The position numbers and the translations under genes are program-made. DNA of 64,000 bases, taken from assembly GCA_965204115.1 (NCBI GenBank), contig OZ241963.1:377548-441547 (forward strand). The letters are read 5' to 3'. The stretch is from Minisyncoccota bacterium (GTDB lineage: Bacteria; Patescibacteriota; Minisyncoccia; Phycocordibacterales; JABAAK01). Of the stretch, positions 2,641 through 64,000 are shown one piece after another (position 1 is the stretch's first letter; every line of letters starts with the position of its first letter). Below the pieces are notes generated by a model. The model was not told where the DNA came from. It did no database searches and saw only the letters and a program-made list of their open reading frames with translations.

Positions 2641-2678
2641 TTAAAAGATGTTTGTGTGTCTGAAAGGGTGGTTTTTGA

Positions 2679-3167
2679 TCACAGAATCAGCAATATCGCT
2701 GCTGCTGCCATACCAAAATTTTCTGTTACTGAAATAGATGTCAGCGGGACTTTCAGAACAGTGCCGAGGCAGGCGCATTGAATATCTGACTGTTTTCTCA
2801 TAGCGAGTATTACACCGGTGCCGCTGAAAATCATCAGTGCCGCCTCTGTCCACAGTAGCCAATCAGGGTGAAATCCCGCGAGCATGACGAGACCGAACGC
2901 AATCTCAAGAAACGGATACACATATCCGTAATCCCGCCAACGCATTGCCAATATATCGTATGTCGCGTACCCTTCAACGAACCCTTTCAAGTTAATAAGT
3001 TTGAAGCCGCCGAACACAAGAAAGAATCCCACCATAGCATGTAGTAGAAATGTGTCTATGCTGCCATCACTGGTTATACCCGCGGATACCCCAATGAGGG
3101 TGAGTGTAACAATGAGCGGTAGGTAGCTTCTTCCTGTGTGCTGTTGTGTGTGTTCTTTGTGCTTCAT
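2679..3167 (-). CDS. MauE/DoxX-family integral membrane protein
   Basis: 162-aa ORF with about four hydrophobic helices, resembling methylamine-utilisation MauE/DoxX thiol-oxidoreductase-associated membrane proteins; sits directly upstream of the multicopper oxidase on the same strand. Confidence 0.5.
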   Translation of the reverse strand: MKHKEHTQQHTGRSYLPLIVTLTLIGVSAGITSDGSIDTFLLHAMVGFFLVFGGFKLINLKGFVEGYATYDILAMRWRDYGYVYPFLEIAFGLVMLAGFHPDWLLWTEAALMIFSGTGVILAMRKQSDIQCACLGTVLKVPLTSISVTENFGMAAAAILLIL

Positions 3168-5499: not shown

Positions 5500-5973
5500 A
5501 TGAAAAAAACTGTGGCCATTGTTATTTTAGGAATCATCATCGTTGCGGGCATCGGCTATGCGGCGAGTGTTGGTTCACCTGAAAATGATACAGCGCTTGA
5601 AATATACCCTGACGATGTGACCACCGCCCCGACTGCAGATACCTCACCAAACTCAACAGGCGGCGAATATGTGAACTACAGTGACTCTCTTGTGCAGCAG
5701 ATGCTTGCTGACGGGAAGCGGGTTGTTTTATTCTTCCATGCGGCGTGGTGTCCGACCTGTAATTTGGCAGACAGAAGAATACAAGAAGCGGCACACCAGA
5801 TACCATCTGATGTTGCCATCTTTAGGGTTGATTACGATCGCGAAAAAGCGTTAGTGGATGCGTATGGTGTTTTGTATCAACACACATTCGTGCAGCTTAC
5901 CGAAGGTGGGTCTCTGGTAACCAAGTTCCAAGGCAGCAGCACACTGCCGGCAATACTTGCCAATATACAATAG
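5500..5973 (+). CDS. Membrane-anchored thioredoxin-like protein (TlpA/ResA-like), WCPTC active site
   Basis: 157 aa, N-terminal TM helix, FFHAAWCPTC thioredoxin motif. Confidence 0.8.
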   Translation: MKKTVAIVILGIIIVAGIGYAASVGSPENDTALEIYPDDVTTAPTADTSPNSTGGEYVNYSDSLVQQMLADGKRVVLFFHAAWCPTCNLADRRIQEAAHQIPSDVAIFRVDYDREKALVDAYGVLYQHTFVQLTEGGSLVTKFQGSSTLPAILANIQ

Positions 5974-8801: not shown

Positions 8802-8822
8802 TACTGACAGTGTAGCACAGGA

Positions 8823-8853
8823 GCAACGCGACACGGATGTCGCGTTGCGAGTA
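8823..8853. repeat. REP-like 31-bp palindromic element GCAACGCGACACGGATGTCGCGTTGCGAGTA (copy A)
   Basis: Stem CAACGCGACA / TGTCGCGTTG with 4-nt loop. Partial second copy at 8884-8907, exact reverse-complement copy at 12673-12703. Confidence 0.75.
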
Positions 8854-8883
8854 AGATGCGGCTGCCAAGTCGCACAATAAAAT

Positions 8884-8907
8884 GACACGGATGTCGCGTT
8901 GCGAGTA
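8884..8907. repeat. REP-like palindromic element, partial copy B
   Basis: GACACGGATGTCGCGTTGCGAGTA, identical to the 3' 24 nt of copy A. Confidence 0.65.
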
Positions 8908-8983
8908 GGCGCAAATTGAATTTTGCGCCGCGAGGCAGGCATATTTCCCGTGGCGACCTCTCTCTTGTGTTACAATCCTAATA

Positions 8984-22400: not shown

Positions 22401-25400
22401 TACCTGCAAGGTACCGGGTTCCGGACCGACCGGTGTGATGACCGGTGGTGTCCTATCTATGTCGGTTATTTGCTCAGATCGGGCGAACGAGACATTGCCG
22501 ACCGTGTCAGCGGCGCGGAAACAGATATATTGCCCATTGTACGATTCATCGTCAAGCGCGATATCCGTGCCGGAGGTATACGGCTGTCCGTCTGCGCTAC
22601 TGCCGATGAGAGAGGCATCGCAGGCACCAGTTGAAATAGCATACTGACTACCGACGGTTGCTGATCTGTCGGTTATCACTGCGCTGACGGTCTTCTCTTG
22701 TGAGGTTCCCGATGCCGGATTGTTCAGGGTGATAGTCGGACCGACACGGTCAATGCCGGTGATCTGCTCAGATCGGGCGAACGAAACATTGCCGACCGTG
22801 TCTGCTGAGCGGAAGCAGACATACTGCCCGTTGTATGTCTCGTTGTCCAGCGTAATGTCCGCGCCGGGGACATAGGGTTCGCCATCTGAGTCGCTGCCGA
22901 TGAGGTCTGTGTCGCAGGCGCCGTTTGCAATACGGTACCGACTACCCGCTGCTGCAACATTGCCAGTAATGGTGGCACTGACGGTTTTTGTCTGTGCTTC
23001 ACCGGTGATTGGTTCAGTAATAGTGATCACCGGAGCAGTTCGGTCTATCCCGCTGATCTGTTCGGAACGGGCGAATGCGATGTTACCCACTTCATCGCGA
23101 GCGCGGAAACAGACATAGTGTCCGTTGTGTGCCTCTTCATCCAGCACGATGTTCTCGCCGGCGGTGTAATTCACGCCATCTGAGTCGCTACTGATGAGTC
23201 TGCTGTCACAGTTTCCGTCTGAGAGTATATATTGCGTACCGGTGTCAACAGGCAGTCCGGTCGCGCTCGCGCTCGCGACTTTCAGCCGCGCAAGACCGGC
23301 TGACGGACCGAGTGTCGTGATAACCGGTGGTGTCCTATCTATGCCGGTGATCTGCTCAGATCGGGCGAACGAAACATTGCCGACCAAATCTGAAGCGCGG
23401 AAACAGGCGTACTGCCCGTTGTATGTCTCATCGTTGAGCGCGATGGTCGCGCCGGAGGTGTACGGTCTGCCGGTCGCGCTGTTACCGATGAGCGATTCAT
23501 CACAGGAGGCATCTGAAATGATATAGCGTGTGTCCGTCGTGATTGCACCGTCGGTAACAATCGCGCTGACAAACTTCTCCTGCGCGGCACCTGTTGACGG
23601 GTCGTTCAGGGTGATGGTCGGACCGGTGCGATCTATGTCAGTGATACGCGCCGAACGGACGAACGAGACATTGCCTGCCGCGTCTCGAGCGCGGAAACAG
23701 ACATGTTGCCCGTTGTATGACTCGTCGTCAAGCGTGATATCCGTGTCGGAGGCATAGAGTTCGCCATCCGCGTCGCTACTGATGAGGGTCGCATCACAGG
23801 CGGATGATGTAATAAGGTATCGCGTGCTCTCAGCGACCGCATCACCGGTGATGACGGCACTCACCAGTTTTTCCCGCGCGTCGCCGAATGCCGGATCAAC
23901 CACCCGCACTGTCGGTGCAGTGCGGTCTATGCCGGTGATCTGCGCGGAACGCGTGAACGAGACATTACCGACCGCGTCGCGAGCGCGGAAGCAGACATAC
24001 TGTCCGTTGTATGCCTCGTCATCAAGTGTGATACTCTTGCCGGAGGTGTATGCTTCGCCGGCAATGTCGCCGCTGATAAGGGTTGCATTGCAGACACTGC
24101 CGGCAATAGTGTACCTGCTGCCGGTAATAGCGGCATCCTCGGCAATCGCAGCGCTGACGGTCTTTTCCCGCGCCGCTCCCACTACCGGATCGGTTACTGT
24201 TACTGTCGGACCGGTACGATCTATGCCGGTGATCTGCTCAGATCGGGCGAACGAGACATTACCGACCGCGTCGCGTGCGCGGAAGCAGACATATTGCCTG
24301 TTGTACGCCTCGTCGTTGAGTATGATGGTCGCGCCGGAGATATACGGTCTGCCGGTCGCGCTGTTACCGATGAGCGATTCATCACAGGAGGCATCTGAAA
24401 TGATATAGCGTGTGTCCGTCGTGATTGCACCGTCGGTAACAATCGCGCTGACAAACTTCTCCTGCGCGGCACCTGTTGACGGGTCGTTCAGGGTGATGGT
24501 CGGGCCGGTGCGATCTATGTCGGCTATCTGCGCGGAGCGGGCGAATGAGACATTGCCTGCCGCATCCGAGACGCGGAAGCAGACATACTGTCCGTTGTAT
24601 GCTTCATCGTTGAGCGCGATATTTGTGCCGGAGGCATAGAGTTCACCATCTGTATTACTGCTGATGAGTGCTGCGTCACAGGCGGATGATGTAATAAGGT
24701 ATCGCGTGCTCTCAGCGACCGCATCACCGGTGATGACGGCACTCACCAGTTTTTCCCGCGCGTCGCCGAATGCCGGATCAACCACCCGCACTGTCGGTGC
24801 AGTGCGGTCTATGCCGGTGATCTGCGCGGAACGCGTGAACGAGACATTACCGACCGCGTCGCGCGCCCGGAAGCAGACATACTGCCCGTTTTGCAGCTCA
24901 TTGTTCAGTGTAACCTCCTCTCCGGAGGTGTATGCTGCCCCTTCGGTATCGCTGCCGATGAGATCAGCATCACAATCTTCAGAAGAGATGGCGTACCTGC
25001 TGCCGGCAGTAGCGGCATCTTCGGCAATCGCAGCGCTGACGGACTTCTCTCGCGCTGTTTCTCCTGCCGGATTGGTCACTGATACTGTCGGACCGGTACG
25101 ATCTATGCCGGTTATCCGCGCGGATCGGGCGAAGACGATGTTATTCACTGTGTCACGCGCCCGGAAGCAGACATACTGTCCGTTGTATGCCTCGTCATCA
25201 AGTGTGATACTCTCGCCGGAGGTGTATGCCGTTCCCTCAGTATCGCTTCCGATGATGTCCGCATCGCAGTCCTCGGTTGTGATGTCATATCGGCTTGCCG
25301 CGGCAATCAGGTGGGTGTCCTCAATCTCCGCGCTGATACTCTTCAGCTGTGCCGCTCCTGATGTCGGCTCGGTGATACTGATTGACGGCTTAATCCGGTC

Positions 25401-28400
25401 AATACCGTCAATCTGCGCCGACCGAGTGAACGAGACATTGCCGACTGCGTCGCGTGCCCTGAAGCAGACATGTTGCCCGTTGTACTCTTCCTTATCCAGG
25501 TTGATGGTATTACCGGCGGTGTAGGAGGTGCCGTCTGTGTCGCTGCCGATGAGATCACTGTCGCAGTCTTCGGTTGTAATGGCATATCGGCTACCGATGG
25601 CGATCGCGATGCCGGTAATACTCGCGCTGACCACTTTCAGCGGCGAGACCCCCGCTGTCAAGCCGAGTGTCGTAATAGTCGGACCGGTGCGGTCTATGCC
25701 GGTTGTCTGCGCGGAACGGGCGAATGAAATATTGCCGGCACTGTCGGATGCCCGGAAGCAGATATGCTGCCCGTTGTATACCTCATCATTAAGGGTTATG
25801 CTCTCTCCGGATTGGTATGTCTGCGCATTGAAACCGATAAATAGTTCAGTATCACAATCTTCGTCTGCAATGCGGTACTTTGTTTCCGTCGCTGATGAGT
25901 CCGTGATCTTGGCACTCACGGTTTTTGTCCGCGCCGCGCCGGTTGCCGCCTCGGTGATGGTGATGTTCGGACCGCCGGTGTCAATGGTTACAGTGATGTC
26001 AGATGTCCATGCGTCCGTATTGCCGGCATCGTCCAGCGCCTGTAAGTATATCCGTTGTGGACTGCGGTTCTCGTCACCGACAGCGATGGTATAGGTGCCA
26101 GTATAGGTGCCGTCGGCACCCTTATTCACCGTTACACTTTCACCGCTTGTCTTCCCGCTGCTGAAAATTCGCATAACCGGATCGGTTCCCAAATGCTCGT
26201 CAACGATCACAGCGTTCACGGTGATGGTATCCCCCGTGCCGGCATAGGTAGTGCCGTCAGCGTCGGAACCTGAGCTCGTTATGGTTACTCCCCCGAAGGT
26301 CGGTTCCGTTCGGTCAATGTTGTCAATCACCGAAGAGCGCGCGAAACGCACATTACCCGCTTCGTCGCGTGCCCGGAAACAGACATACTGCCCGTTTTGC
26401 AGCTCATTGTTCAGTGTAACCTCCTCTCCGGAGGTGTACGCTGTCCCTTCGGTATCGCTGCCGATGAGATCAGCATCACAATCTTCAGAAGAGATGGCGT
26501 ACCTGTTCCCCACACTGACCGGGTTCGCGTCCGTGATGGTCGCGGCAACGGTTTTCTCCCGCGCTGCGCCTTCCGCCGGTTCTGTGACGCTGATTGTCGG
26601 TGCGCTTCGGTCTATTCCGGTGATCACCGATGAGCGCGCGAATGAGATATTGCCGATAATATCCCGGGCGCGGAAACAGACATACTTACCGTTATGCTGC
26701 TCACTGTTCAGATCAATGTCCGTGCCGGAGATGTATGCATTGCCGCTACTGTTGTCGCTGATAAGGTTTTCATCGCATGCGCTCTCTGAAATGACATACC
26801 GTGCACCGGCGATAACGATGTTTTTGTCCGTGATGCCCGCTTTGAGCGTCTTTTCCTGTGCCGCGCCGGTGGCGAGTGATCCGACACTGATAACCGGATC
26901 AACTGTGTCAATGATGACTCCGATATCGACTCCGCGTCCGCTGAGGTTTCCGGCTGCGTCACGCGCCTCCATGTGCAGGAGTTGCGTTGAACGATCTTCA
27001 TCGTCGGCACGCACGGTGTAGGTCGCGGTGTAGGTGCCGTCGTTGTTGTCGGTCACTTGCATTGCTTCGCCGAGTGTGCTGTTCTCGCTGAAAATCTTGA
27101 CTGTGGGCAGTCCGCTGAAGTTCGTGTCCGATACAGAGAGTGTGGCGGTGATGGTGTCTCCCGCTCCGGCATAGTAGGTGCTTTCGTAGGCACTGTCTGT
27201 GGTGACCGAAACGGTGCTAATAACCGGATTCGTTCGGTCAATGCCGGTGATCACTTTTGAGCGGGCGAACGAAATATTGCCCACCGCATCGCGCGTCCTA
27301 ACACAGAGGTACTTGCCGTTGTAGGTTTCACTGTTGAATGCGATGCCGCTGCCGGAAACATACCGATCGCCTTCAGTGTCCGAACCGATGACCTCCTCGT
27401 CACAGGAGCCGTTCGCAATGATCGCGCGGCGAGTGCCGGCGGCAATTGCATCCGCACTGATGGTCACACTAATTGTCTTTGTGTTCGTTACACCGTCCGG
27501 ATGAATAATACTGATTGTCGGCCCGGTGCGGTCAATACCGCTTATTTTCGCCGATCTCGCGAAGACGACATTCCCCGCCTTGTCCCGCGCGCGGAAGCAG
27601 ACATACTGCTCGTTATACGCTTCGTCGTTCAGCGTGATCTCCGCGCCGGAGGTGTAACTGTTGCCGCTCGTGTCGCTTGCGATGAGGTCTTTATCGCATG
27701 TTTTGTCTGAGATACTGTAGCGAGTGCCGCTCGTGAGTATGCCGCTGCCGACATCACTGAGTGTCGCGCTGACTGTTTTCTCCCGTGATCCGCCTGCTGG
27801 TATAGCGGTAACACTGACAGTCGGCGCCGCGGTATCAATGACCACCCCGAGTGTGCCGGTGCCGGTGCTGACATTGTCGGCGTCATCCTGCGCCCGCACA
27901 AATATCTTTTGCACAGCACTGTCTTCGTCATCAGGGCGTACTGTGTGGGTTAGCGTATAGTTTCCATTATCAATTCTGTTCACCGTCATAGCGGTGCCGC
28001 CCGTCGTTGTCTCGCTGAATATCCGCGCTTCCGGAAGTGCGATGAGATTTGAATCGGCAATGAGTACGGTTCCGGTGATAATATCCCCCGCTTTCGCATA
28101 CTTCACACCGTTGGCAGTGATGCCGGTGGTGGTGATATGTATATTACCGATCGCCGGACTGATTCGGTCTATTCCGGTGATCATCGACGAGCGGGCGAAC
28201 ACGATATTGCCGGCACTGTCACGCGCGCGGAAGCAAACATACTTCTCGTTGTAATGTTCACTGTCCAGCGCGACATTATTACCGGAAGTATATGCCTTGC
28301 CATCATCGTCATTGCCAATGAGGTCTGCATCACAATCGTCTGCTGAAATAGTGTAGCGGGTGCCGCTGGTGTCCGCGTCCGCGCTGACAATCGCGCTGAT

Positions 28401-31400
28401 GCCTTTCTCCCGCTGCACGCCGCTCCTCGCCTCGGTAATACTGATGGTCGGTGCCGTGGTGTCTATGCCCGTCACTTGTGTCGAACGCGCGAATGAGACA
28501 TTGCCCGCGACATCAATTGTCCGAAAGCAGACATAACTGCCATTTTGCGCTTCGTCGTCCAACACAATCGCGCGACCGGAGGTGTAGGGTTCGCTGTTCG
28601 CACTGGCTGCCAGGGTACTCTCGTTGCAGATTGAGCTTTTTGAAATGAGGTATCGCGCACTTTTGGGGTTCGCGTCTATTATTTTCGCACTAACGGTTTT
28701 TTCCTGTGCCGTGCCGCTTGATGCTTCGGTAACGGTAATCGTCGGTACGGTGGTGTCAACAATTATTGTTTTTCCGTATCCGTCGGTACCGCCGGCGTAG
28801 GTGGTGTCGGGAATGGTGTTACCCACTGCATCGGCAATTGCCTTGATGGTGAAGCTTAGATCACCGTTCTCCCCCGCGACAACAGTGTGTACCCATTGAA
28901 AAATTTTCGCATTATTCGCGCCGTCTTGCGACAAAATGATCGGTGTGCCGGTGACGGTCTCTCCGTCCAGATGTATCGCTATGCGACTAACCGCGTTATC
29001 CGAGAAACTGAGCTGGTCAGCGACGGTTGCCTGGATGGTTATCTGATCTCCCGCCTGTGCGGCAGTTGTAATCTCGTTGTTCGTGGTCGCGTGTACGCTT
29101 GAGAGTGTCGGCGGGGTGGTTTCCGCTTCAATAATCTTAATTTCCTGACTTTCGTCGGGTGCTGCGTTTCCCGCATTGTCCTTTAAATCGGTAACAGACC
29201 ATCTCAACACGCCGTTGTCTCCGGGCTGGATCGTGTACGGGTACCGTACATGACCGGCGGCGGCACCCTCAACAGTACCCGCTTCCGCATCTCGGTACGC
29301 TTCGTCGCCGAACTTTACTTTCCAGAGCCCCGCGCTGTGCGAAGAAAAGCCGCTGGCGCTCACTTCGTTGTTGTATCTCCGTTCAATGATGATCGTACTG
29401 CCTGCCGGAAGGTACTTAACGACGCCGTCAAATCTTTTTTTGGCGGCATCGCTGGTGCCGTTGATGTAATAATCGGTTGCACTTGCAACCGGTCTCGTGG
29501 TGTCTATGACCACCCCGATGTCAACGCGATGACCTCCGGCATTACCGGCATCATCACGCGCCTCCAGGTGAATCTTTTTCGGGGTTTTACTCTCATCGCC
29601 CGACTGGACGGTATAGGTGGCGATGTACCCCTGCTCGCCGGTTTTCCTCACGGTCATGCCGGTGCCGCCGGCAGCGCTCTCGCTGAATACTCGCATCACC
29701 GGAAGCGTGGTCAGGTGCTCGTCAGAAACGGTTGTAGTCGCGACGATGTCATCCCCCGCTTTTGCGTATTTATTGGTGCCGTAGACATTGCCCGAAGTGG
29801 TTACGGCGATATTCCCTATTACCGGATTTGTGCGGTCTATGTCGGCGATTTGCGCCGAACGCGCGAATGAGACATTGCCGAGTGTGTCACGCGCGCGGAA
29901 ACAGATGTAGGAACCGTTCTCATCTTCCCTGTTCAGCGTGATAACACTGCCGGAGGTGTAGTTCACACCGGCGGTGTCACTCCCGATAACACTTTCGTCG
30001 CAGTCCTCAGATGAAACTGTGAAACGGATACTGCCGGTGACGGCAGTTGCGTCAATTGTCGCGTGCATGGTTTTCTGTCGAGCAGCACCTCCTCCGGGTC
30101 CGACAGTGGTGATAGATGGTCCCGTCCGGTCTATGCCGTTTATCCGCGCAGATCGCGCGAACGAAATATTACCCGCTTTATCGCGTGCCCGAAAACAGAG
30201 ATATGTGCCGTTGTACCCTTCATTTTTCAGGACGACAGCTTCGCCTGAAGTCCATGCGCTCCCCACCCCATCACTACCGATGAGTGCTTCGTCACAAGTC
30301 GCGCTTGAGATAACATAACGGTTGCCGGTTGCGTCCGTGTTGGTGTCTGTTACGGTCGGGGTTATGCTCTTGCTCTGCGCTGCGCCTGACGCAGGGTCGG
30401 AGATGCTGAGTGCCGGGCTTGTGGTATCGATTTTCATCGCGTTCGTTGACACCTGCACGGTTGTGCTTTTGCCGTCGCTTGCCGCGAAACAGGCATATTT
30501 GCCGGAATGATTTTCTGTGTTGAAAGTTGCCGTGTACTCCTCGCCACGCTCCGGTGACGGAACGACCACAAAGGATGTTGGCGGTGTGGTGCCGTTATAT
30601 GTGGAATTATCGAGGCATTCTGCACTGGTTTCGACTTGCTGATAGCTCAAGTACAGCGTGTCATTTGGGTTAACATCACTAAGGCGCACGGTAAAGCCGT
30701 GCGATCTTGCCCAAGTGTTCGGGATATCATTAATTATTGTCAGTATCGGTGGGGTATTTTGTGGTGCGATAGCCGGAGAGACAGCACTGCGTATGTTTCC
30801 TGAGTAATCTTCCGCATAGACGCATATCTTGTCGGACAGGGCATTCGGCACGGTATACGAGTAGGACACCTCCTTTGGTAATCCCCCCGGTTCCACGACT
30901 TTCCCGCTGCTGACCTCGTTGTAGGTATCGCAGGCAGTTGAGTCCTCAGACCCGCTGATTTTTAGTGCGCCGTAGCGGTATATACCTGACTGGCTGTCTG
31001 TAATATTGATCGTATAGTTTTTTTCCACTTCTGGTGTGCCTGGAAAGGTTATAATAGGGGTGGTGTTATCCGGCTCATCTGCTTCAATGCTGTTGAGTGT
31101 CCAGGTTTCGTTATTCGCAGTGTTGCCCGCATTGTCGCTCGGTCCGGTGAGGGAAAATTTGAGTACGCCGTCGTCGCCAGGAGCGATGGTGTATGAGTAC
31201 CTCACCCTGCTGTTGCTGTCAAACACGGTGCCGTTGCTCATATTCCTCCACCGTCCGTTGCCGAATCTGATCCGCGCTACGCCGGCGTTCCCCGGAGACA
31301 GACCGCTCTCTCTTCCTTCGTTGGCGTACAACAGCATAATGGCAATCCGGGTGCCGGCGTTCACTTTACTGTGAACATTGAGATTTTTCTTCACCTCGTT

Positions 31401-31907
31401 AATGAAATAGTCAGTTGTGGTGCGTACCGGAGGTCTGGAATCTATTCGCAGTGTTCCGTGGAGCGGTATGTTCACGATGCCCCATGTGTCAAAAAACGAC
31501 ACGCATGCCTTGTTTGTTACTGTAAATAAACCGTGCTTAATGGGAAACTGTATGTTCCTTGTCTGTTCTCGATTACCCGGCACACTCAGCTGTACGCTAT
31601 TTGAAATTTCAGTCGCGTGGCCGTTGCAATTTGGATGTGAAAAATTGAGAAGACGCATCTCGGGGCGCACGGTCGCGGAGCTGAATGTCCGGTAGGTGAA
31701 GGTTACCCATGCGGCGATAGTATCGTTGTTACCCAGCCACCTGTTAATATTTGAAGTGTACGAAGCCCTGTTCGCCGCAAAAACATTCGGCATAAACACC
31801 GTTAAACCGATGAACGGCACAAAACATATGAGTAAAATATAAAGGGCTACTCGATACCTGCGAACGAAAAAAGACCTGTCCATAGGTGATGGGACTAAAA
31901 TTGACAA
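19455..31907 (-). CDS. Giant (4150 aa) membrane-anchored surface protein with ~35-40 tandem ~95-aa Ig-like repeats
   Basis: Single 12.45-kb ORF with N-terminal TM helix. Repeat unit ..GIDRTGPTI(T/S)..G.A.EKTVSA.I.D....RY.IS...CD..LIGSD..G..YTSG..I.LDDEAYNGQYVCFRARDAVGNVSFARSAQIT. Many repeats are near-identical at the DNA level. Confidence 0.85.
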   Translation of the reverse strand: MSILVPSPMDRSFFVRRYRVALYILLICFVPFIGLTVFMPNVFAANRASYTSNINRWLGNNDTIAAWVTFTYRTFSSATVRPEMRLLNFSHPNCNGHATEISNSVQLSVPGNREQTRNIQFPIKHGLFTVTNKACVSFFDTWGIVNIPLHGTLRIDSRPPVRTTTDYFINEVKKNLNVHSKVNAGTRIAIMLLYANEGRESGLSPGNAGVARIRFGNGRWRNMSNGTVFDSNSRVRYSYTIAPGDDGVLKFSLTGPSDNAGNTANNETWTLNSIEADEPDNTTPIITFPGTPEVEKNYTINITDSQSGIYRYGALKISGSEDSTACDTYNEVSSGKVVEPGGLPKEVSYSYTVPNALSDKICVYAEDYSGNIRSAVSPAIAPQNTPPILTIINDIPNTWARSHGFTVRLSDVNPNDTLYLSYQQVETSAECLDNSTYNGTTPPTSFVVVPSPERGEEYTATFNTENHSGKYACFAASDGKSTTVQVSTNAMKIDTTSPALSISDPASGAAQSKSITPTVTDTNTDATGNRYVISSATCDEALIGSDGVGSAWTSGEAVVLKNEGYNGTYLCFRARDKAGNISFARSARINGIDRTGPSITTVGPGGGAARQKTMHATIDATAVTGSIRFTVSSEDCDESVIGSDTAGVNYTSGSVITLNREDENGSYICFRARDTLGNVSFARSAQIADIDRTNPVIGNIAVTTSGNVYGTNKYAKAGDDIVATTTVSDEHLTTLPVMRVFSESAAGGTGMTVRKTGEQGYIATYTVQSGDESKTPKKIHLEARDDAGNAGGHRVDIGVVIDTTRPVASATDYYINGTSDAAKKRFDGVVKYLPAGSTIIIERRYNNEVSASGFSSHSAGLWKVKFGDEAYRDAEAGTVEGAAAGHVRYPYTIQPGDNGVLRWSVTDLKDNAGNAAPDESQEIKIIEAETTPPTLSSVHATTNNEITTAAQAGDQITIQATVADQLSFSDNAVSRIAIHLDGETVTGTPIILSQDGANNAKIFQWVHTVVAGENGDLSFTIKAIADAVGNTIPDTTYAGGTDGYGKTIIVDTTVPTITVTEASSGTAQEKTVSAKIIDANPKSARYLISKSSICNESTLAASANSEPYTSGRAIVLDDEAQNGSYVCFRTIDVAGNVSFARSTQVTGIDTTAPTISITEARSGVQREKGISAIVSADADTSGTRYTISADDCDADLIGNDDDGKAYTSGNNVALDSEHYNEKYVCFRARDSAGNIVFARSSMITGIDRISPAIGNIHITTTGITANGVKYAKAGDIITGTVLIADSNLIALPEARIFSETTTGGTAMTVNRIDNGNYTLTHTVRPDDEDSAVQKIFVRAQDDADNVSTGTGTLGVVIDTAAPTVSVTAIPAGGSREKTVSATLSDVGSGILTSGTRYSISDKTCDKDLIASDTSGNSYTSGAEITLNDEAYNEQYVCFRARDKAGNVVFARSAKISGIDRTGPTISIIHPDGVTNTKTISVTISADAIAAGTRRAIIANGSCDEEVIGSDTEGDRYVSGSGIAFNSETYNGKYLCVRTRDAVGNISFARSKVITGIDRTNPVISTVSVTTDSAYESTYYAGAGDTITATLSVSDTNFSGLPTVKIFSENSTLGEAMQVTDNNDGTYTATYTVRADDEDRSTQLLHMEARDAAGNLSGRGVDIGVIIDTVDPVISVGSLATGAAQEKTLKAGITDKNIVIAGARYVISESACDENLISDNSSGNAYISGTDIDLNSEQHNGKYVCFRARDIIGNISFARSSVITGIDRSAPTISVTEPAEGAAREKTVAATITDANPVSVGNRYAISSEDCDADLIGSDTEGTAYTSGEEVTLNNELQNGQYVCFRARDEAGNVRFARSSVIDNIDRTEPTFGGVTITSSGSDADGTTYAGTGDTITVNAVIVDEHLGTDPVMRIFSSGKTSGESVTVNKGADGTYTGTYTIAVGDENRSPQRIYLQALDDAGNTDAWTSDITVTIDTGGPNITITEAATGAARTKTVSAKITDSSATETKYRIADEDCDTELFIGFNAQTYQSGESITLNDEVYNGQHICFRASDSAGNISFARSAQTTGIDRTGPTITTLGLTAGVSPLKVVSASITGIAIAIGSRYAITTEDCDSDLIGSDTDGTSYTAGNTINLDKEEYNGQHVCFRARDAVGNVSFTRSAQIDGIDRIKPSISITEPTSGAAQLKSISAEIEDTHLIAAASRYDITTEDCDADIIGSDTEGTAYTSGESITLDDEAYNGQYVCFRARDTVNNIVFARSARITGIDRTGPTVSVTNPAGETAREKSVSAAIAEDAATAGSRYAISSEDCDADLIGSDTEGAAYTSGEEVTLNNELQNGQYVCFRARDAVGNVSFTRSAQITGIDRTAPTVRVVDPAFGDAREKLVSAVITGDAVAESTRYLITSSACDAALISSNTDGELYASGTNIALNDEAYNGQYVCFRVSDAAGNVSFARSAQIADIDRTGPTITLNDPSTGAAQEKFVSAIVTDGAITTDTRYIISDASCDESLIGNSATGRPYISGATIILNDEAYNRQYVCFRARDAVGNVSFARSEQITGIDRTGPTVTVTDPVVGAAREKTVSAAIAEDAAITGSRYTIAGSVCNATLISGDIAGEAYTSGKSITLDDEAYNGQYVCFRARDAVGNVSFTRSAQITGIDRTAPTVRVVDPAFGDAREKLVSAVITGDAVAESTRYLITSSACDATLISSDADGELYASDTDITLDDESYNGQHVCFRARDAAGNVSFVRSARITDIDRTGPTITLNDPSTGAAQEKFVSAIVTDGAITTDTRYIISDASCDESLIGNSATGRPYTSGATIALNDETYNGQYACFRASDLVGNVSFARSEQITGIDRTPPVITTLGPSAGLARLKVASASATGLPVDTGTQYILSDGNCDSRLISSDSDGVNYTAGENIVLDEEAHNGHYVCFRARDEVGNIAFARSEQISGIDRTAPVITITEPITGEAQTKTVSATITGNVAAAGSRYRIANGACDTDLIGSDSDGEPYVPGADITLDNETYNGQYVCFRSADTVGNVSFARSEQITGIDRVGPTITLNNPASGTSQEKTVSAVITDRSATVGSQYAISTGACDASLIGSSADGQPYTSGTDIALDDESYNGQYICFRAADTVGNVSFARSEQITDIDRTPPVITPVGPEPGTLQVKVAAVSITGLAADAGNRYVITGGVCDETVIASDTDGEAYTPSGGIVLDDEAYNRQYVCFRARDAIGNVSFARSAQITGIDRSGPVITPFGPESGAARLKVANARVTGFAEAVGNRYVITDEVCDETVIASDADGEAYTSGGSIILDDREQNGRYICYRARDAIGNVSFARSQQINGIDTSGPSINVAALSGGTARIKNISAEITDLSLVATGTRYIISGEPCDEALIASDIDGELYIPGTNVALNSESYNGQHVCFRTRDAIGNIVFARSAQITGIDRTPPVITPFGPEPGTARLKVVSASVTGLAVDAGDRYVITDGACDETVIASDADGDLYVSGRNIVLDNEAYNGRYICYRARDEAGNVSFVRSLQIDGIDTTAPTIAVADLTTEPALVKSVSASITGDADVAKSRYIISGDACDSDLIRTDTDGELYTSGESIVLDDEAYNGQHVCFRAADTVGNISFTRSDQIIGIDQSGPVITPFGPEPGTARLKVVSASVTGLAVDAGDRYVITDGACDETVIASDADGDLYVSGRNIVLDNEAYNGRYICYRARDEIGNVSFARSAQITGIDRTGPVITPFGPTSDPARLKVVSASVTGLAVDAGDRYVITSDVCDETLIDSDTDGDLYTSGGSIVLDDEAYNGQYVCFRARDAVGNVSFARSARIIDIDTTPPFVGEIITNTSGTVNNTGKYAKAGDTINIVFSESDLNFNNALPTVRIFTGTDAIGTALSVTGVPGSYNASYIVQPDDENKPQQVSITVSDIPGNVTTSTQQLDIIIDTTAPAPPSAITLATEYDSGLSNSDGITNRFTDLTFLISAEPNTVAVLSDSGGASGVIGSDGTPATITRTLPEESRLIALTATATDIAGNTSQESEQFTVAIDVNSPRMQLSRIEDRNITGSEDIVIFGAPSDPPAAVDSVDTVAVKAMTKTECDALTVFPTDGDEYTPFTFYELPTTALNGVCFIVRDRAGNIGATHSNDAE

Positions 31908-32018: not shown

Positions 32019-33179
32019 TTAGTCACGGATGGTGACTACTTGCCCGTTTTCAATTCGCTTTTTGACATGGGAGACGCCGGTTATGTCGCCGTTTTCGTCA
32101 AATTCGTGTTTTCCGGTGACACCGTCATATCCTTCCAGGTCGTCCAAGTACTTTCTGATCGCGTCGGTGTCTTCCGAGCCGACTGCCGCAACAGCTTCGG
32201 CAAGGATGTAGACATTGTCATATGCGGCACCGGTGTAGTACTCAATGCTCAGGTGACCGTATCGTCTTTCGTATTCCTCCAGGAATTCCACCGCTTTCGG
32301 GTCACTGTGATCCAGCTCAGGGTTGTCAAAGAAAGTGAGTCCCTCTATCGCATCACCGGCGGTTTGGATCACTTCCGCGCTTGAGAGCACATTGGTCCCG
32401 TACAGCGGAACAGTGATGCCTGCTTCTTTGATCTGCTTGATGATCGTGGCACCGGCGTCTCCTTGTGGGTTGATAAAGATCGCTTCGGGATTCGTCGACT
32501 TTATTCTCGCGATAATGTCACTGAAGTCAGTCGTGCCGGGAGCGAATCGCTCACTGTCAAGGATGGTTCCGCCGGCCTTCACGAAGTGTCCCTCAAGCAC
32601 CCGCTCCAAGGCGAGCGCATATTCGGTCTCTTCGGCAATCGTCGCGATCTTCTTATACCTTTTCAGAATTACATCAGCCAGAAAGAACCCGCCGGCCGCG
32701 TCAGACGGACTACTACGGAAGAAGTATCTCCCTGCACCGGTCAGGTTTGGGCTGGATGCTGAAGGTGAGAAGACAATTACTTTCTCTCCCTCGGTAACCG
32801 CGAGCATCGCCTGCGTTTCACTGCTGCAAACGCCGCCGATGATCATTTTCACTTTGTCAACATTCACCAGCTTGTATGCTACCTCCACGGCATCTTTAGC
32901 GGTACATTTACCGTCTTCATAGACCACCCGTAGCTCCCGACCGTTTATTCCGCCGGCGGCATTAATGTTATCTACTGCCATCTCGACACCATTGCGAATC
33001 GGGTTTCCGTATGATGCCGCACTTCCGGTCAATGCGCCGATGAACCCGATGGTAACCGGACTCGTGTCCTGAGGAGCGCGCGACCCCGAAGTTAATTCTG
33101 ATTGTGATATATATTGATACCCGAACCATAGTGCTATAACTGCAGCGATACCAATTACCACTTTTGTTGTTGTATTCAT
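32019..33179 (-). CDS. LivK-like (Peripla_BP_6) solute-binding protein, N-terminal TM anchor
   Basis: 386 aa; matches branched-chain amino acid SBP-family motifs; paralog of 33311..34507 and 61611..62743. Confidence 0.8.
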   Translation of the reverse strand: MNTTTKVVIGIAAVIALWFGYQYISQSELTSGSRAPQDTSPVTIGFIGALTGSAASYGNPIRNGVEMAVDNINAAGGINGRELRVVYEDGKCTAKDAVEVAYKLVNVDKVKMIIGGVCSSETQAMLAVTEGEKVIVFSPSASSPNLTGAGRYFFRSSPSDAAGGFFLADVILKRYKKIATIAEETEYALALERVLEGHFVKAGGTILDSERFAPGTTDFSDIIARIKSTNPEAIFINPQGDAGATIIKQIKEAGITVPLYGTNVLSSAEVIQTAGDAIEGLTFFDNPELDHSDPKAVEFLEEYERRYGHLSIEYYTGAAYDNVYILAEAVAAVGSEDTDAIRKYLDDLEGYDGVTGKHEFDENGDITGVSHVKKRIENGQVVTIRD

Positions 33180-33310: not shown

Positions 33311-34507
33311 TTACCGAATAGTTAGCACCTCGCCGCCTTCAATCTTTTTCTCCACATGCACAATGCCGGTTATGTCGCCATTTTCATCAAATGCATGCCT
33401 ACCGATTACCCCGTCAAAGTCCTTCATAGTGCGCAGGTAGTTTCTGATTGCATCGGTATTCTCTGAGCCGACCCGCTTAATGGCTTCAGTGAGGATGTGT
33501 ACAGCGTCATAGGCGGCACCAGTGTAAAATTCTACACCCGGATCGTCGTAGGTATCTTTGTACCGCTCCAAAAACGATACCGCCTTCGGGCTGTTTAGGG
33601 TTATGTCAGGGTTGTCAAAGAAGGTGAGTCCTTCTATTGCCTCACCGGCGGCTTGGATCACTTCCGCGCTTGAGAGCACATTCGTCCCGTACAGCGGAGC
33701 GGTGACGCCCGCTTCCCTGATCTGCCGTACAATAATTCCGCCGGCATCTCCCTGCGGATTAACAACAACCGCTTCGGGCGAGAGTGCTTGCATTTTCGCG
33801 ATTTTATCCGTGAAATCTTTTGTGCCGGGAGCGAATCGCTTGCTTATAAGGATTGTGCCGCCATTCTTGGCGAAAGTGTCCTCAAACACCTGTTCCAGTG
33901 CGAGCGTGTATTCGGTCTCCTCAGCAATTGTCGCTATCGTTGTGTATTTTTCCAGAATCAAATCTGCCAGAAACGAACCGCCTTTGGCATCAGACGGACT
34001 GCTGCGGAAGAAGTAGTCCCCCGCGCCGGTCAGGTTGGGGCTTGATGCCGACGGTGATAGGACAATCACCTTTTTTTCCTCAGTAACCGCGAGCATCGCC
34101 TGCGTTTCACTGCTGCAAACGCCGCCGATGATGATACGTACCCCGGCTGCATTCACCAGATTATCCGCCGCATGTACGCCGCCGTTGGCAGTACACTTAC
34201 TGTTTTCATAGAGTACCTTCAAAGACCTGCCGTTCACGCCGCCGGCAGCGTTAATATCATTGACCGCCATCTCAACAGCATTGCGAATCGGCACTCCCCA
34301 GATTGCCGCGTCTCCGGTCAGCGCGCCGGCAAATCCGATGGTGATTGGCAGAGCAGTGTCTGTGGCACCGGCAGGGTCAGCAGCATTTTTCGAATGCACG
34401 CGTTCGTTTGTGTCTCTGGTATTGTTTTGTGGTAGGTATTGGTAACCAGACCATAGTAACGCTGCAATTGCAGCAATACCAATTATCACCTTTACTACTG
34501 TGTTCAT
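33311..34507 (-). CDS. LivK-like (Peripla_BP_6) solute-binding protein, N-terminal TM anchor (tandem paralog)
   Basis: 398 aa, high similarity to the neighbouring SBP over its whole length. Confidence 0.8.
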   Translation of the reverse strand: MNTVVKVIIGIAAIAALLWSGYQYLPQNNTRDTNERVHSKNAADPAGATDTALPITIGFAGALTGDAAIWGVPIRNAVEMAVNDINAAGGVNGRSLKVLYENSKCTANGGVHAADNLVNAAGVRIIIGGVCSSETQAMLAVTEEKKVIVLSPSASSPNLTGAGDYFFRSSPSDAKGGSFLADLILEKYTTIATIAEETEYTLALEQVFEDTFAKNGGTILISKRFAPGTKDFTDKIAKMQALSPEAVVVNPQGDAGGIIVRQIREAGVTAPLYGTNVLSSAEVIQAAGEAIEGLTFFDNPDITLNSPKAVSFLERYKDTYDDPGVEFYTGAAYDAVHILTEAIKRVGSENTDAIRNYLRTMKDFDGVIGRHAFDENGDITGIVHVEKKIEGGEVLTIR

Positions 34508-37693: not shown

Positions 37694-39610
37694 CTACCAC
37701 ACAAACGCATCGTTGAGATAGCGCAGCAGGTCTTGTGTGTCGGTGAAGGCGTTTTCTGAGTTGAGTATGACTGTTATAACATGCCCCTTTTGCTTTGGTG
37801 CTTTGGAAATTATTGCGAGATTGCTTTTTGCTCTCGGTGTTGTGCCGGTTTTACCGCCCAGTATCTGTAGTGGGAGGTCTTGGCTGCTGAGCAGTTCGTT
37901 GGTTGTTGTTATCGGTACGGTTCGATTGTCATTTACGGTGGTGATGATGTGTTCATCTTTTTGCAGGATTGCAAAGATGTCTTTCTTGTTCTTGAATAGA
38001 TGCTGCAGGAGTGCCACGACGTCTGATACGGTTGCGTGGTTCAGGTCGCTGCTTCCCTGTTCCGGGTCAAGTCCGGTTGTGTTGAAGAAGTGTGTGTTGA
38101 GCATTTTTAGCTGGCGAGCTCTGTTGTTCATTTTTTGTATAAATTTTTCCCTGCCGATTGTTTCTGCGATTGCGATTGCGACTTCGTTATTTGATTCTAT
38201 CAAAATCGCATGCAGCGCGTCGTTGAGTGTTAGTGTTTCTCCTGCGGTAAATTTTCCTGACACACCTTTTCCGCTCAACGCGCTCCGGTTGATGGTGATG
38301 TGGCTGTTTCGCTGCAGGGTCTCCGTCGCGACTAGTGCGGTCATTAGTTTGGTGATACTCGCGATTGGTACTTCCCTTTCTTTATTTTTTTGTAGGAGTG
38401 CTTGGTTTGTACGGTTTGCGTTTATTGCTATTGCCACAGCGCTGTCCGCGGACAGTGTGGGCTCTTCACTGTTGCTGCGCTTTAGGATTGGGGACGGTGT
38501 TGTTCGTCGCGCTGCCGGCAGCACGAGTTCGGCATGCCACACATCGTTTTGCCAGCGCCAGTCAGCATCCATGCCGCCGAAGATCCACATCTTATCTTTA
38601 AATATAATTGAGGAGAAATCTTCCCGCCCCTTCCATTGCGGATCAGTCACGGTCTTGCTCCAGATGATTCCGTCTTCGGTATACCACACATTGTTCGGTC
38701 CGCCGTTTCTTGCATCGTTAAATCTCCCGATGAGCCACAGTTTTCCTTTGTATGCTTCCATCGCGTGACCCTGCCGGCTTTCCCATGGCGGGTTGTCGGT
38801 GAGCAGCCGCCAGTCCATACCGTTTTCGGTTACCCAGACATCACTAAAGATTGCGTTGTTCAAATCCATACCGCCGGTTAGGAATAGTTTTCCGTTGAAC
38901 GCCGCGGTTGCGTGATCCCACCGCGACTCCCACGGCGCTTCCTTCGCCTCTGTCCAGGTGACTCCGTCTTCGGAGTACCACACATCGTTTTTCGTTTCTC
39001 GGTCGTCATAGTTCACGCCGCCGATGAGCCAAATCTTATCCTGAAAAATTTCCACCAACTGCCCTTCCCGTGCCGGCCACGCTGCCTCCTTGACCACCTG
39101 TGTCCAGTGCACTCCGTCAACTGATGACCAGATATCGTTTGTGTATCCGGTTACCGGACTCCACCCGCCGAACATCCACAAGGTGTCTTTAAAGAGCACT
39201 ACTGACATTGATCGCCTCGGTGGCCATGCAGCTTCTGCTGTCGCCTGTTGCCACACCACACCGTCTTCGGAGTGCCATACATCGTTGAAGTGTGGTGCCT
39301 TCCAGTAGTCGATGGTTTTGTCTCCCCTGACTGTTTGGTTGCCGTTGATCCCCCCCATCATCCAGATTTTATTTTGGAATATAAATGCCTCGGCAGAATC
39401 TCGTGCCTCCCATGGTGCCGCTGCTGTTACCTTTGTCCAACGCATATCCTGCCGTCGTGGTGTTGCTGGCTTTTGGTCGGTGCCGTTTTGTGCGATCTTT
39501 TTTTCGTCATCTGTAGCGTCCGGTTCGGTGGATGGACCGACCATGTGGTACATACCGAAAACGAAGAGGGCGAAGACAGCCGCAAAGATGACGAATTCAA
39601 ACCATTTCAT
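37694..39610 (-). CDS. Fusion protein: N-terminal Asp-box (BNR-like) beta-propeller + C-terminal D-Ala-D-Ala carboxypeptidase (S11, DacA-like)
   Basis: Five S-x-D-G-x-x-W boxes (HSEDGVVW, SSVDGVHW, YSEDGVTW, VTENGMDW, YTEDGIIW). C-terminal SITK (SxxK), SNN (SxN) and KTG motifs of PBP5-type peptidases; N-terminal TM anchor. Confidence 0.75.
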   Translation of the reverse strand: MKWFEFVIFAAVFALFVFGMYHMVGPSTEPDATDDEKKIAQNGTDQKPATPRRQDMRWTKVTAAAPWEARDSAEAFIFQNKIWMMGGINGNQTVRGDKTIDYWKAPHFNDVWHSEDGVVWQQATAEAAWPPRRSMSVVLFKDTLWMFGGWSPVTGYTNDIWSSVDGVHWTQVVKEAAWPAREGQLVEIFQDKIWLIGGVNYDDRETKNDVWYSEDGVTWTEAKEAPWESRWDHATAAFNGKLFLTGGMDLNNAIFSDVWVTENGMDWRLLTDNPPWESRQGHAMEAYKGKLWLIGRFNDARNGGPNNVWYTEDGIIWSKTVTDPQWKGREDFSSIIFKDKMWIFGGMDADWRWQNDVWHAELVLPAARRTTPSPILKRSNSEEPTLSADSAVAIAINANRTNQALLQKNKEREVPIASITKLMTALVATETLQRNSHITINRSALSGKGVSGKFTAGETLTLNDALHAILIESNNEVAIAIAETIGREKFIQKMNNRARQLKMLNTHFFNTTGLDPEQGSSDLNHATVSDVVALLQHLFKNKKDIFAILQKDEHIITTVNDNRTVPITTTNELLSSQDLPLQILGGKTGTTPRAKSNLAIISKAPKQKGHVITVILNSENAFTDTQDLLRYLNDAFVW

Positions 39611-61554: not shown

Positions 61555-61657
61555 TTTGTGTCGTTGCAAAACATGCTATACTTTTTGTAATTAACACTTA
61601 AATTTTTTATATGAAAAATATTGTCAAATTAGTAGGGGGGGGGTAATTTTTGTTTTA

Positions 61658-62743
61658 TTGGTTATTGTGATTTTTTCTGCACAATCCGGTGAACAAGATG
61701 CTTTGCTGGTATCCGGCGACACTGTTACCATTGGTTGGATTGGTCCTCTTACCGGAGATGCTGCTGCGGTCGGTACCGACAGCGCCAAGATGGCACAGCT
61801 GTCTGTTGACGCTGTTAATGCACAGGGTGGTATTGATGGGAAGATGCTTCATTTGATTGTTGAGGACGATAAATACTCCACCGAGAAATCAATTGGTGCG
61901 TATGAAAAGTTGGTCAGAGTTGATGGCGTGAAGATTATTTTGATGCAGACCTACGGGTCATTGTTCGCTTTATCTGACAGGGCGGAGAGGGATGGTGTGG
62001 TGTTGGTTGGTGTTTTGGATAGCAATGACAATTTGGCTAACTTGGGGAAGCATGTTTTTTCGCTTGGTGTTGAATCAGAAAGTATTTCGAAGATGTTATC
62101 TGGCTATGCTAATACACAAGGATTTAAGAAGGCGGGAATATTGTATTTTGAGAGTGATACCTTTTTCCCTTATATAAAAGACCTTTTCGTGTCACTCTTT
62201 GACGGTGCGTCAGTGGCTGAGGGATATGTTGCCGGATTGCACGATTTTCGAACACCGCTCTTAAAGATGAAGGATGAGGGTGTAGATGTCTTTGTCTGCT
62301 TTGGGTATGACGAGTGTGGTAGTGCAATTTATCAGGCAAGGACACTTGGTATTGATACCCCCCTCCTTATGGCCGGAACTATTATGAGTCCTGCATTGCA
62401 TGAATTGGCGAGAGGGTACGCAGAGGGAGGCGTCTTTACTTTTTGGATAGCGTCTAAAGACAAGGAACCGGCGAGATCTGTTTTGGAGCGGTTCAAGGCG
62501 AAAGAGGGGAGGATGCCTTTTGTTGATGTGTTCTCACTACCTGCTTACGATGCGGTTCAGGCGACATCTTCTGCACTCTCCTCCTCTGGGGATTACAGTG
62601 TGAATTCTTTTTCTCGGTCGCTCAGAAATGTTCGTGGACTGCGAGGGGTGACCGGTGCGGTTAATTTTTCTGATGACGGAACTGCAAGGATACCATTCTC
62701 ATTATTCAGGTTAGAGCAAGGAGCTCCGGTGCCAATTAGGTAG
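61658..62743 (+). CDS. LivK-like (Peripla_BP_6) solute-binding protein; annotated from a TTG start, but the probable true ATG (61611) and signal peptide are out of frame because of a G9 homopolymer
   Basis: Body is a paralog of the SBPs at 32019 and 33311. Upstream ATG 61611 plus the G tract 61635-61643 would encode MKNIVKLVGGGVIFVLLVIVIFSAQS if the tract were G10. Confidence 0.7.
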   Translation: MVIVIFSAQSGEQDALLVSGDTVTIGWIGPLTGDAAAVGTDSAKMAQLSVDAVNAQGGIDGKMLHLIVEDDKYSTEKSIGAYEKLVRVDGVKIILMQTYGSLFALSDRAERDGVVLVGVLDSNDNLANLGKHVFSLGVESESISKMLSGYANTQGFKKAGILYFESDTFFPYIKDLFVSLFDGASVAEGYVAGLHDFRTPLLKMKDEGVDVFVCFGYDECGSAIYQARTLGIDTPLLMAGTIMSPALHELARGYAEGGVFTFWIASKDKEPARSVLERFKAKEGRMPFVDVFSLPAYDAVQATSSALSSSGDYSVNSFSRSLRNVRGLRGVTGAVNFSDDGTARIPFSLFRLEQGAPVPIR

Positions 62744-63052: not shown

Positions 63053-63167
63053 CGGCTTTGCTTTTTTGCTGTTTTATGGTATTGTATAGGCGGGACTGGT
63101 TGGGGTTACCCTGACCTTGTACTCACAATTTTACTATAAGATTTTGCTGTAAGGAGGCAAAAAACAA

Positions 63168-64000
63168 TGAGGTATTTGATTGCAGTAGTTCTCTGGTTAT
63201 TAGTGTTTTTGATTGCAGTCCTTTATGCTTCCTATTCTGTGGAAGCATCGGGTATGGAAACTTCGGACGCAGAGACATTGAGCCAGACGGGTGTGGAGCA
63301 GGAAGTGGTGGAAGAGGGGATTCAGGAAGATTCTCAGGATGTGGATTCCTTGAACGATATGAGGGATACTGAGGAGATTCAAGAAGATTCTCAAAGTACG
63401 GATATCATCCCGATTGATGCAGAGGAGATCCGGGAAGACTCTCAAGATACGGATTCTTTGAGTGATGTGGAGGATACTGAGGAACTTTCAGCTGACCCTC
63501 TTCCTGAGTTCTCATTGTCATCAGAGGCGGAGAAGCGGCTTTCCGAAAGGATCAGAGAGATATCGGAGGAGGCGCAGAGACGGGAGCGGTCCAGTTATGC
63601 CCTATCTTACCTTGCTGGCTACACCGATCAAGGTGTTGATGAGGTCCTCCCGGAACATTTTTTCCAAGGACATATTGTTTCTCAGGGAATCGCATTCTCG
63701 CATCGCGCCGGTTTTCGGCTTGCTATTGAGAACCTTACCAGCATTGCTGGCGGGGGATTTAGCGATATGGGAGACAGGACACTGCTGAGTGCCGAGGTTT
63801 GGAAAAAATCCGGTTTTCTGTATGGTTCCGTCCAGCATCGATGGGTGCATGCGAATTATAGGGTGAGCGAAGATTTTTTCTTTGGTGACAGGCACAGAAC
63901 GGCCGTGCGAGTCGGGCTGATGATCGGACCACTACAGCCGCATGCCTTCGTCGCATCTGATCTTCCGGCATATATGTCAGTCAATGAGATGGCTGTGTAC
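63168..64000 (+). CDS. Secreted protein with acidic IQEDSQD(V/T)DSL repeats, 3' end beyond window
   Basis: AGGAGG RBS at 63152-63157, signal/TM N-terminus MRYLIAVVLWLLVFLIAV, three acidic ~19-aa repeats, open frame to the window end. Confidence 0.55.

Follow-up and report, generated by a model that had tools for sequence, protein, structure and literature searches.

The locus and its reading frames

The DNA analyzed here, a stretch of 64,000 nucleotides from contig OZ241963.1 of a Minisyncoccota bacterium (assembly GCA_965204115.1, positions 377,548 to 441,547), is referred to as the window, and close to its 3' end it carries a gene for a solute-binding protein (SBP) of the LivJ/LivK type whose 5' part contains a homopolymer of nine G residues (G9). 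The window is bacterial and of the candidate phyla radiation (CPR) type, its source contig has a length of 661,662 bp, and its genes include those for a bacterial NusA, trigger factor, a D-Ala-D-Ala carboxypeptidase and a class-I LysRS. The SBP gene follows a set of HlyD/FtsX/ABC genes (MacAB-like) and precedes a gene for a membrane protein of 76 amino acids.

An earlier sequence-only reading of this stretch had described an ATG at 61611 that is translated as MKNIVKLVGGG through the tract and then meets a TAA, and this is borne out by the letters of positions 61611-61646, which are ATG AAA AAT ATT GTC AAA TTA GTA GGG GGG GGG TAA. The open reading frame (ORF) of the protein body lies in frame +2 relative to this ATG and ends with a stop at 62743; its first canonical start is a TTG at 61658, followed by a GTG at 61667, and the public gene call P0001 of 358 amino acids begins at the latter. 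It had further been claimed that one extra G would join the ATG frame to the SBP body. Rebuilding the tract in silico with ten G residues (G10), and also with seven or thirteen, indeed yields a single ORF of 377 amino acids beginning MKNIVKLVGGGVIFVLLVIVIFSAQSGEQ, and the N-terminus of the fused protein reads MKNIVKLVGG(G)VIFVLLVIVIFSAQSGEQ..., while G8, G9, G11 and G12 lead to an early stop within 11 to about 27 codons. As the tract forms codons 9-11 of the ancestral ORF, a change of its length toggles the frame near the 5' end. The coordinates of these features are collected in Table 1. The block ACATGCTATACTTTTTGTAATTA at the putative -10 element is identical in a related lineage described below (L003), and a consensus scan did not list the element because its -35 region is poor.

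Table 1. Features of the SBP locus, in positions of the window.
Feature	Position	Strand	Remarks
Putative extended -10 promoter element, TGcTATACT	61574..61582	+	28 nt 5' of the ATG; proposed from reading the sequence
Ancestral start and first eight codons, MKNIVKLV	61611..61634	+	Charged n-region of the signal anchor
G9 homopolymer	61635..61643	+	Presumably hypermutable; ON with G7/G10/G13, OFF with G8/G9/G11/G12
Remainder of the hydrophobic anchor and linker, VIFVLLVIVIFSAQSGEQDALLVSGD	61643..61720	+	In the body frame
TAA ending the ATG frame as assembled	61644..61646	+	After MKNIVKLVGGG
Internal TTG 61658 and GTG 61667	61658..61669	+	Sole canonical starts of the body ORF as assembled
Mature LivJ/LivK-type solute-binding domain through stop	61721..62743	+	HAAT family, Peripla_BP_6

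Protein identity and N-terminal anchor

The assignment of the body as a LivK-like SBP, already made in the sequence-only reading, agrees with profile and structure matches. The Pfam family PF13458 (Peripla_BP_6) is matched by residues 38-370 of the fused protein with an E-value of 1.6e-43 and a score of 150 bits (cutoff 31.7), covering profile positions 1-340 of 343. The top match in the PDB is 4gnr, a branched-chain amino-acid SBP (E 3e-28, alignment from residue 37), and further matches include 1usg and 1z15, so that E-values range from 3e-28 to 1e-13 over the whole mature domain. As the mature chains in the PDB align from about residue 37, residues 1-36 of the fused reading are the place for an export signal or anchor and a linker. 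This N-terminus contains two lysines followed by a 15-residue segment with a mean Kyte-Doolittle hydropathy of 3.17, the best 15-residue value, compared to best values of only 0.77 and 0.57 for the N-termini that start at the TTG and the GTG, respectively. With these low values the protein would not be exportable as assembled, in accordance with the earlier claim that the assembled gene lacks its anchor. The export signal or anchor expected for a LivJ/K-type SBP is thus absent from the assembled gene and found only in the G10 or G7 reading. The product is predicted to consist of an N-terminal transmembrane anchor and an extracytoplasmic binding domain, which suggests a localization at the cell surface.

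Compared with the LivJ/LivK proteins (HAAT, Peripla_BP_6; 4gnr, 1usg, 1z15), the body encoded in the window is a clear member of the family. It differs in two respects: LivJ and LivK carry a cleaved periplasmic signal, whereas the window protein has a predicted transmembrane anchor that looks uncleaved and lacks a lipobox cysteine, and no permease genes adjoin the gene in the window. Altogether, the window contains three LivJ/K-type genes (32019-33179 on the minus strand, 33311-34507 on the minus strand and 61611-62743 on the plus strand), the first two being tandem paralogs, and none of the three adjoins LivH/M permease genes. Both paralogs are Peripla_BP_6 proteins and start with MNTTTKVVIGIAAVIALW and MNTVVKVIIGIAAIAALLW, respectively. 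The sequence-only reading had stated that the fused N-terminus gives exactly the anchor of these paralogs; they do exist and share its architecture, but with only 27% identity to the protein studied here the word exactly goes too far.

Orthologs and the ancestral N-terminus

The fused N-terminus can be compared to nine orthologs (P0002-P0010, 35-70% identical), all of which start with the motif M-x-K-x-x-K-h-h-x-G followed by a hydrophobic stretch. In the alignment of the fused reading with these nine proteins, M1 and K6 fall into nearly invariant columns. Since it matches the anchor motif of all nine orthologs, the fused N-terminus is the ancestral reading. A lack of conservation of the upstream ATG frame in relatives, named earlier as an observation that would speak against the reading, was looked for and not found: the frame is kept in the orthologs and in L003. 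The nearest ortholog (L001/L002, 70% identical) comes from a metagenome of the sponge Petrosia ficiformis and has five G's at the tract site. Its codons GTG GGG GTT TTA ATT GTT TTT GTC TTG TTA GTT match the N-terminal part of the window gene without a gap when the latter is read at G10 (GTA GGG GGG GGG GTA ATT TTT GTT TTA TTG GTT), so that five G's there correspond to nine or ten here.

Further along the same sponge gene, an in-frame run of eight C's (..HRTPPS..) is located at L001 260-267 (= L002 211-218), about 20 codons past the tract site in the linker following the anchor. Each of the three lineages that are at least 70% identical thereby has a G/C run of at least eight within the first ~110 nt of the gene, and the more distant orthologs have none there. 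The C8 run hints that G/C tracts recur at the 5' end of this gene in the clade. A profile search of genome and metagenome contigs returned only orthologs of at most 50% identity, none with an N-terminal G/C run of seven or more. On the contig of a 57% identical ortholog (L087), a run of eight G's is found at 5913-5920, 13 nt 5' of the start of a Fic-domain gene, and a run of seven G's encodes the conserved GG of the SBP. The closest SBP relatives among species-representative genomes (L005, L008, L010, L018; up to 45% identity) are metagenome-assembled genomes labelled Nanoarchaeota or Woesearchaeota, and others belong to CPR bacteria, Bdellovibrionota and further groups. The SBP family seems to be shared by ultra-small bacteria and DPANN archaea, or these bins are mislabelled.

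A second lineage with a poly-G tract

The 90% protein cluster of P0001 contains one further member, P0052, which is encoded on L003, an ENA scaffold of sample SAMN17524322, and on L004, a Logan contig of SRR13587049. They show no difference over 1,311 nt and are taken as the output of two assemblers from the same data. The DNA of this lineage is about 88% identical to that of the window, with a range of 82-91%. Its start region has the codons ATG AAA AAT ACT ATC AAA TTA GTG, and the homologous site reads ATG AAA AAT ACT ATC AAA TTA GT-GGGGGGGGG-CGATTATTGTC, again with nine G's that are out of frame. Compared to the window, the tract region lacks 1 nt; eight or eleven G's would therefore represent the ON state there, and a TAG just 5' of the tract closes the body frame. 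In the part of the anchor past the tract, read in the body frame, the substitutions between the two lineages are conservative hydrophobic or synonymous.

Over the 1,077 nt of the SBP body no indel has occurred and no stop codon has been gained between the window and L003. The dN/dS ratio of the body amounts to 0.09 (NG86) or 0.16 (YN00) at a dS of 0.36-0.50; for comparison, values of 0.05-0.07 were obtained for the neighbouring ATPase gene and of 0.04 for the gene of the 76-amino-acid protein. This purifying selection implies that the gene was kept functional and that the OFF states are recent or transient. If the common ancestor was in frame, the tract must have undergone two or more indel events to give the two differing frameshifted states. 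The tract length thus differs between lineages while the body is conserved, an observation made on two lineages only. Both assemblies of the one sample, ENA and Logan, show G9, which says only that G9 is the majority state there.

Several searches for further alleles were performed. Neither a scan of genome contigs with a tract pattern of flexible length nor a scan of metagenome contigs with a conserved 23-mer gave a match, and exact-protein look-ups of P0001 and of the neighbouring ATPase found no match either. The look-up of the 76-amino-acid downstream protein led to a scaffold of 627 nt (L086) from a third lineage, on which the upstream side is repeat DNA and not the SBP gene.

Homopolymer statistics

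In the window, runs of three G's occur 433 times, of four 89 times, of five 22 times and of six once; runs of seven or eight are absent, and G9 occurs once. The tract is the longest homopolymer of the window and its sole G/C run of at least eight; apart from it, only a single C7 reaches a length of seven. The window shows a strong avoidance of G and C runs, and GGG accounts for 19% of its glycine codons. The expected number of G/C runs of at least nine per window is 0.04 under an order-5 Markov model, which was trained on the window with G9 included, and 0.26 under an order-1 model, and an origin of the G9 tract by chance alone is moderately unlikely. It is the placement of the tract and its recurrence in the second lineage that make it count as more than chance.

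Intact ORFs of the window contain about 28 A/T runs of 7-8 nt, and frameshifts are absent from all other genes, which argues that the assembly is not prone to homopolymer errors. The coding density is 88%, and the genes that were checked give full-length domain matches. The C7 run at 39350-39356 (G7 on the coding strand), the second-longest G/C run, is in frame at codon 84 of the gene 37694-39610 on the minus strand, which encodes an exported D-Ala-D-Ala-carboxypeptidase-like protein of 638 amino acids. It is possibly a weaker slippage site in another surface-protein gene.

A proposed poly-G contingency switch

With moderate confidence, we favour the interpretation that slipped-strand mispairing at this locus switches a membrane-anchored binding protein ON and OFF, the consensus being in the OFF state in both lineages. 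The G9 tract would be a real, slippage-prone simple-sequence repeat in the signal-anchor-coding 5' part of the LivJ/K-type SBP gene, and single G's would be gained or lost by slipped-strand mispairing during replication. With seven, ten or thirteen G's, translation from ATG 61611 would yield the full anchored protein (ON). With eight, nine, eleven or twelve G's, translation would end early, after 11 to about 27 codons, and any body that is made would lack an export anchor (OFF). The assembled consensus would accordingly be OFF and could be turned ON by a single insertion. Such switching may be frequent and reversible within populations, and the cell could benefit from it, for instance through variation of a surface protein that might be a target of phages or of a host.

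In host-adapted pathogens such as Neisseria, Campylobacter, Helicobacter and Haemophilus, poly-G contingency loci are textbook knowledge. In the neisserial gene pilC the tract is located in the region encoding the signal peptide, as it is in the window gene. Poly-G/C tracts become hypermutable at a length of about seven to eight or more, a length that G9 exceeds, and a surface-exposed product, typical of contingency loci, is consistent with the predicted transmembrane anchor and binding domain. Poly-G tracts of Neisseria have a modal length of nine, and a G(9-20) tract lies within the pilC gene (PMC5953494). The pilC genes of Neisseria gonorrhoeae and Neisseria meningitidis share with the window gene a G tract within the reading frame of a surface-protein gene, a change in the length of which toggles expression ON and OFF (Jonsson et al. 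1991, as cited in PMC5953494). The biological settings differ, as pilC encodes a pilus tip or assembly factor of a host-adapted proteobacterial pathogen and the window gene an ABC-type SBP of a CPR-like bacterium; moreover, switching was shown experimentally for pilC, whereas it is only inferred for the window gene. A second comparison is offered by the contingency loci of Campylobacter jejuni (e.g., cj1139, cj0031, capA), which carry G8-G11 tracts in coding regions of surface-related genes with a modal poly-G/C length of nine, as in the window. Tracts gain or lose single units there at rates between 1e-4 and 1e-3 per division, and a mutational bias brings them to a length of about G9 (PMC3401435). 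A change from G9 to G10 occurs at ~1.0e-3 and from G9 to G8 at ~2.1e-4 per division; insertions are the more frequent change at G8-G9 and deletions at G11, so that tract lengths tend toward about nine (PMC3401435). Such mutational convergence would account for the nine G's of the two lineages irrespective of their frames. In contrast to the window, which has one tract of at least eight in 64 kb, C. jejuni has ~29 such loci per genome and lacks mismatch repair.

Several observations weigh against a contingency switch. Just two lineages carry the tract and both of them are OFF, and no ON allele was present in any database searched. The chance that two consensus sequences are both OFF is ~4/9 even without selection (three frames, two of them OFF). 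The unchanged nine G's are not significant alone, as their retention in both lineages has a P of ~0.26 at ~14% divergence per site, and this retention was rejected as evidence of selection. There is no other candidate switch tract of at least eight in 64 kb and hence no sign of a wider phase-variable set. Finally, a search of the full-text literature yielded no description of phase variation by repeats in CPR/Patescibacteria, which is weak evidence of absence as the library was limited.

We give roughly even weight to the more specific proposal that this is a true contingency locus in CPR/Patescibacteria, by which the cell would stochastically show or hide a permease-orphan, anchored LivJ/K-like protein, which might, for example, serve as a receptor for phages or, in an episymbiont, for contact with the host. 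If real, the switch would mean that stochastic ON/OFF switching of surface proteins occurs also in an ultra-small, uncultivated CPR-type bacterium and that the SBP is under fluctuating selection, be it from phages, a host or partner cell, or the nutrient regime. The mechanism itself is already known; what would be new is its occurrence in a CPR-like lineage and its action on a binding protein of the ABC type. Metagenome consensus sequences hide any ON subpopulation. Furthermore, the public gene calls for both lineages (358 amino acids) start inside the anchor, and automated pipelines therefore silently mis-annotate the gene.

Alternative explanations

An unlikely alternative that deserves attention is gene decay, in which the tract represents no more than a hot spot of mutation and each of the two lineages is losing the gene on its own, with no functional switching. 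Reduced genomes often lose genes. The OFF state of both tract-bearing lineages and the lack of an ON allele are in line with decay, and so is the genomic setting: a tblastn search with the LivH/M proteins of L001 found no LivH/M-like gene in the 64-kb window, and neither LivHM nor LivGF is encoded together with the SBP there, whereas the orthologs at 57-70% identity (L087, L001) reside in LivHMGF-type operons. The two other LivJ/K-like SBP genes of the window could compensate for a loss. An SBP gene without a permease partner may be dispensable, in line with decay, or its product may act alone as a receptor at the surface, in line with a contingency gene. Against decay stands the conservation of the body, with its dN/dS of 0.09-0.16 and its freedom from indels and stops over a dS of 0.36-0.50, so that the inactivation would have to be very recent in both lineages. 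In addition, at the rates described for C. jejuni (PMC3401435), reversion of G9 is about as likely as the forward change, and a stable pseudogene is therefore unexpected until the tract is interrupted or the body damaged.

Quite unlikely, in our judgement, is a homopolymer error of sequencing or assembly, with a true genome at G10 and an intact gene. The sequence-only reading had posed a switch and such an error as the two alternatives. Of these, the real slippage-prone tract is favoured, given the second lineage with its other wrong frame and the lack of any other homopolymer-broken gene; gene decay and recoding had not been considered. Consensus errors classically concern the length of homopolymers, G9 surpasses every other homopolymer of the window in length, and a single added base gives a perfect, family-typical protein. 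An error is opposed by the ~28 A/T runs in intact ORFs with no other frameshifted gene, and by the separate metagenome lineage, for which two assembly pipelines likewise gave nine G's that are out of frame. As the window needs +1 and L003 needs -1 (or +2), two unrelated miscalls of opposite sign would be required. An error in one of the two data sets is possible, and as the whole story it is unlikely.

Recoding, in which the DNA is fixed at G9 and the full-length protein arises by RNA-polymerase slippage or by a ribosomal frameshift (-1 on G GGG GGG while the TAA occupies the A site), appears very improbable. Slippage at homopolymers that rescues frameshifted genes is known in reduced genomes. 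Slippery sites rich in G shift poorly. With a shift of -1 at the run, exactly the G10 product would arise, and G GGG GGG at 61637-61643 followed by TAA matches the X XXY YYZ heptamer, albeit only formally; the nine G's in both lineages despite their different frames are also compatible with recoding. Yet the lineages require opposite shifts, -1/+2 in the window versus +1/-2 in L003, and the fold of the RNA 61644-61740 has a z of -1.47, that is, no significant downstream structure. On these two findings programmed frameshifting was rejected. Slippage rescue in Buchnera and Blochmannia (poly-A), in insertion sequence elements and in Thermus dnaX shares with the window a homopolymer of at least nine that breaks a conserved gene in a reduced genome; these cases use A/T runs, whereas the run in the window is G and the two lineages need opposite shifts. 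Transcriptome-wide, 100% of homopolymer slippage insertions were found in A/T runs, and G/C runs were described as 'not prone to slippage' (PMC5574713). Transcriptional slippage was hence down-weighted, as the run has the right length but consists of G.

That the gene works as assembled from TTG 61658 or GTG 61667, with the upstream mini-ORF being irrelevant or a leader peptide, is extremely improbable: ORF callers do use TTG and GTG, and the database protein P0001 begins at the GTG, but the products (MVIVIFSAQ.. and MIFSAQ..) lack a charged n-region and have a hydrophobic stretch of insufficient length (0.77 and 0.57 versus 3.17), an SBP must be exported and all orthologs have the full anchor, both lineages maintain codons for hydrophobic residues in the body frame between the tract and the GTG, and in L003 the TAG just 5' of the tract closes this frame. 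Because of the same TAG, a non-canonical start at ATT 61628 (body frame, MSRGGVIF...) was rejected as well.

Genomic context and further observations

A Shine-Dalgarno-like motif precedes 7 of the 42 genes of the window. A -10-like box (TAyAnT, often TATACT) that ends 3-12 nt before the start was found for 11 of the 42 genes compared to about one expected by chance, which suggests that leaderless mRNAs or mRNAs with very short leaders may be widespread in this genome. The SBP gene differs in this respect, as its -10-like box ends 28 nt 5' of the ATG.

The neighbourhood of the gene varies between the lineages. In L003 the spacer between the ATPase and SBP genes (2655-3008) is enlarged to ~350 nt and contains two extra partial copies of the 3' end of the ATPase gene (80-nt copies at a spacing of 171 nt) together with hairpin repeats. 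An alanine racemase gene lies between the FtsX and ATPase genes of L003 (781-1917) and is not found there in the window. A small family of hairpin repeats resembling repetitive extragenic palindromic elements, e.g., GCAACGCGACACGGATGTCGCGTTGCGAGTA and GGCGCAAATTGAATTTTGCGCC, is located at 8818-8931 of the window, 5' of an AhpC/TSA gene, and copies related to them are present between genes in two related lineages (L003 2677-2729 and L086 127-231).

Two genes downstream of the SBP gene, an acidic repeat-containing protein with no Pfam match is encoded (63167-64000 in the window, 4550-5608 in L003). It is ~57% identical between the lineages in a crude alignment, compared to 91-97% for its neighbours; it looks fast-evolving and is probably a surface protein. 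On the minus strand, an intact ORF of 4,150 amino acids spans positions 19455-31907 of the window, and its product is presumably a giant surface protein.

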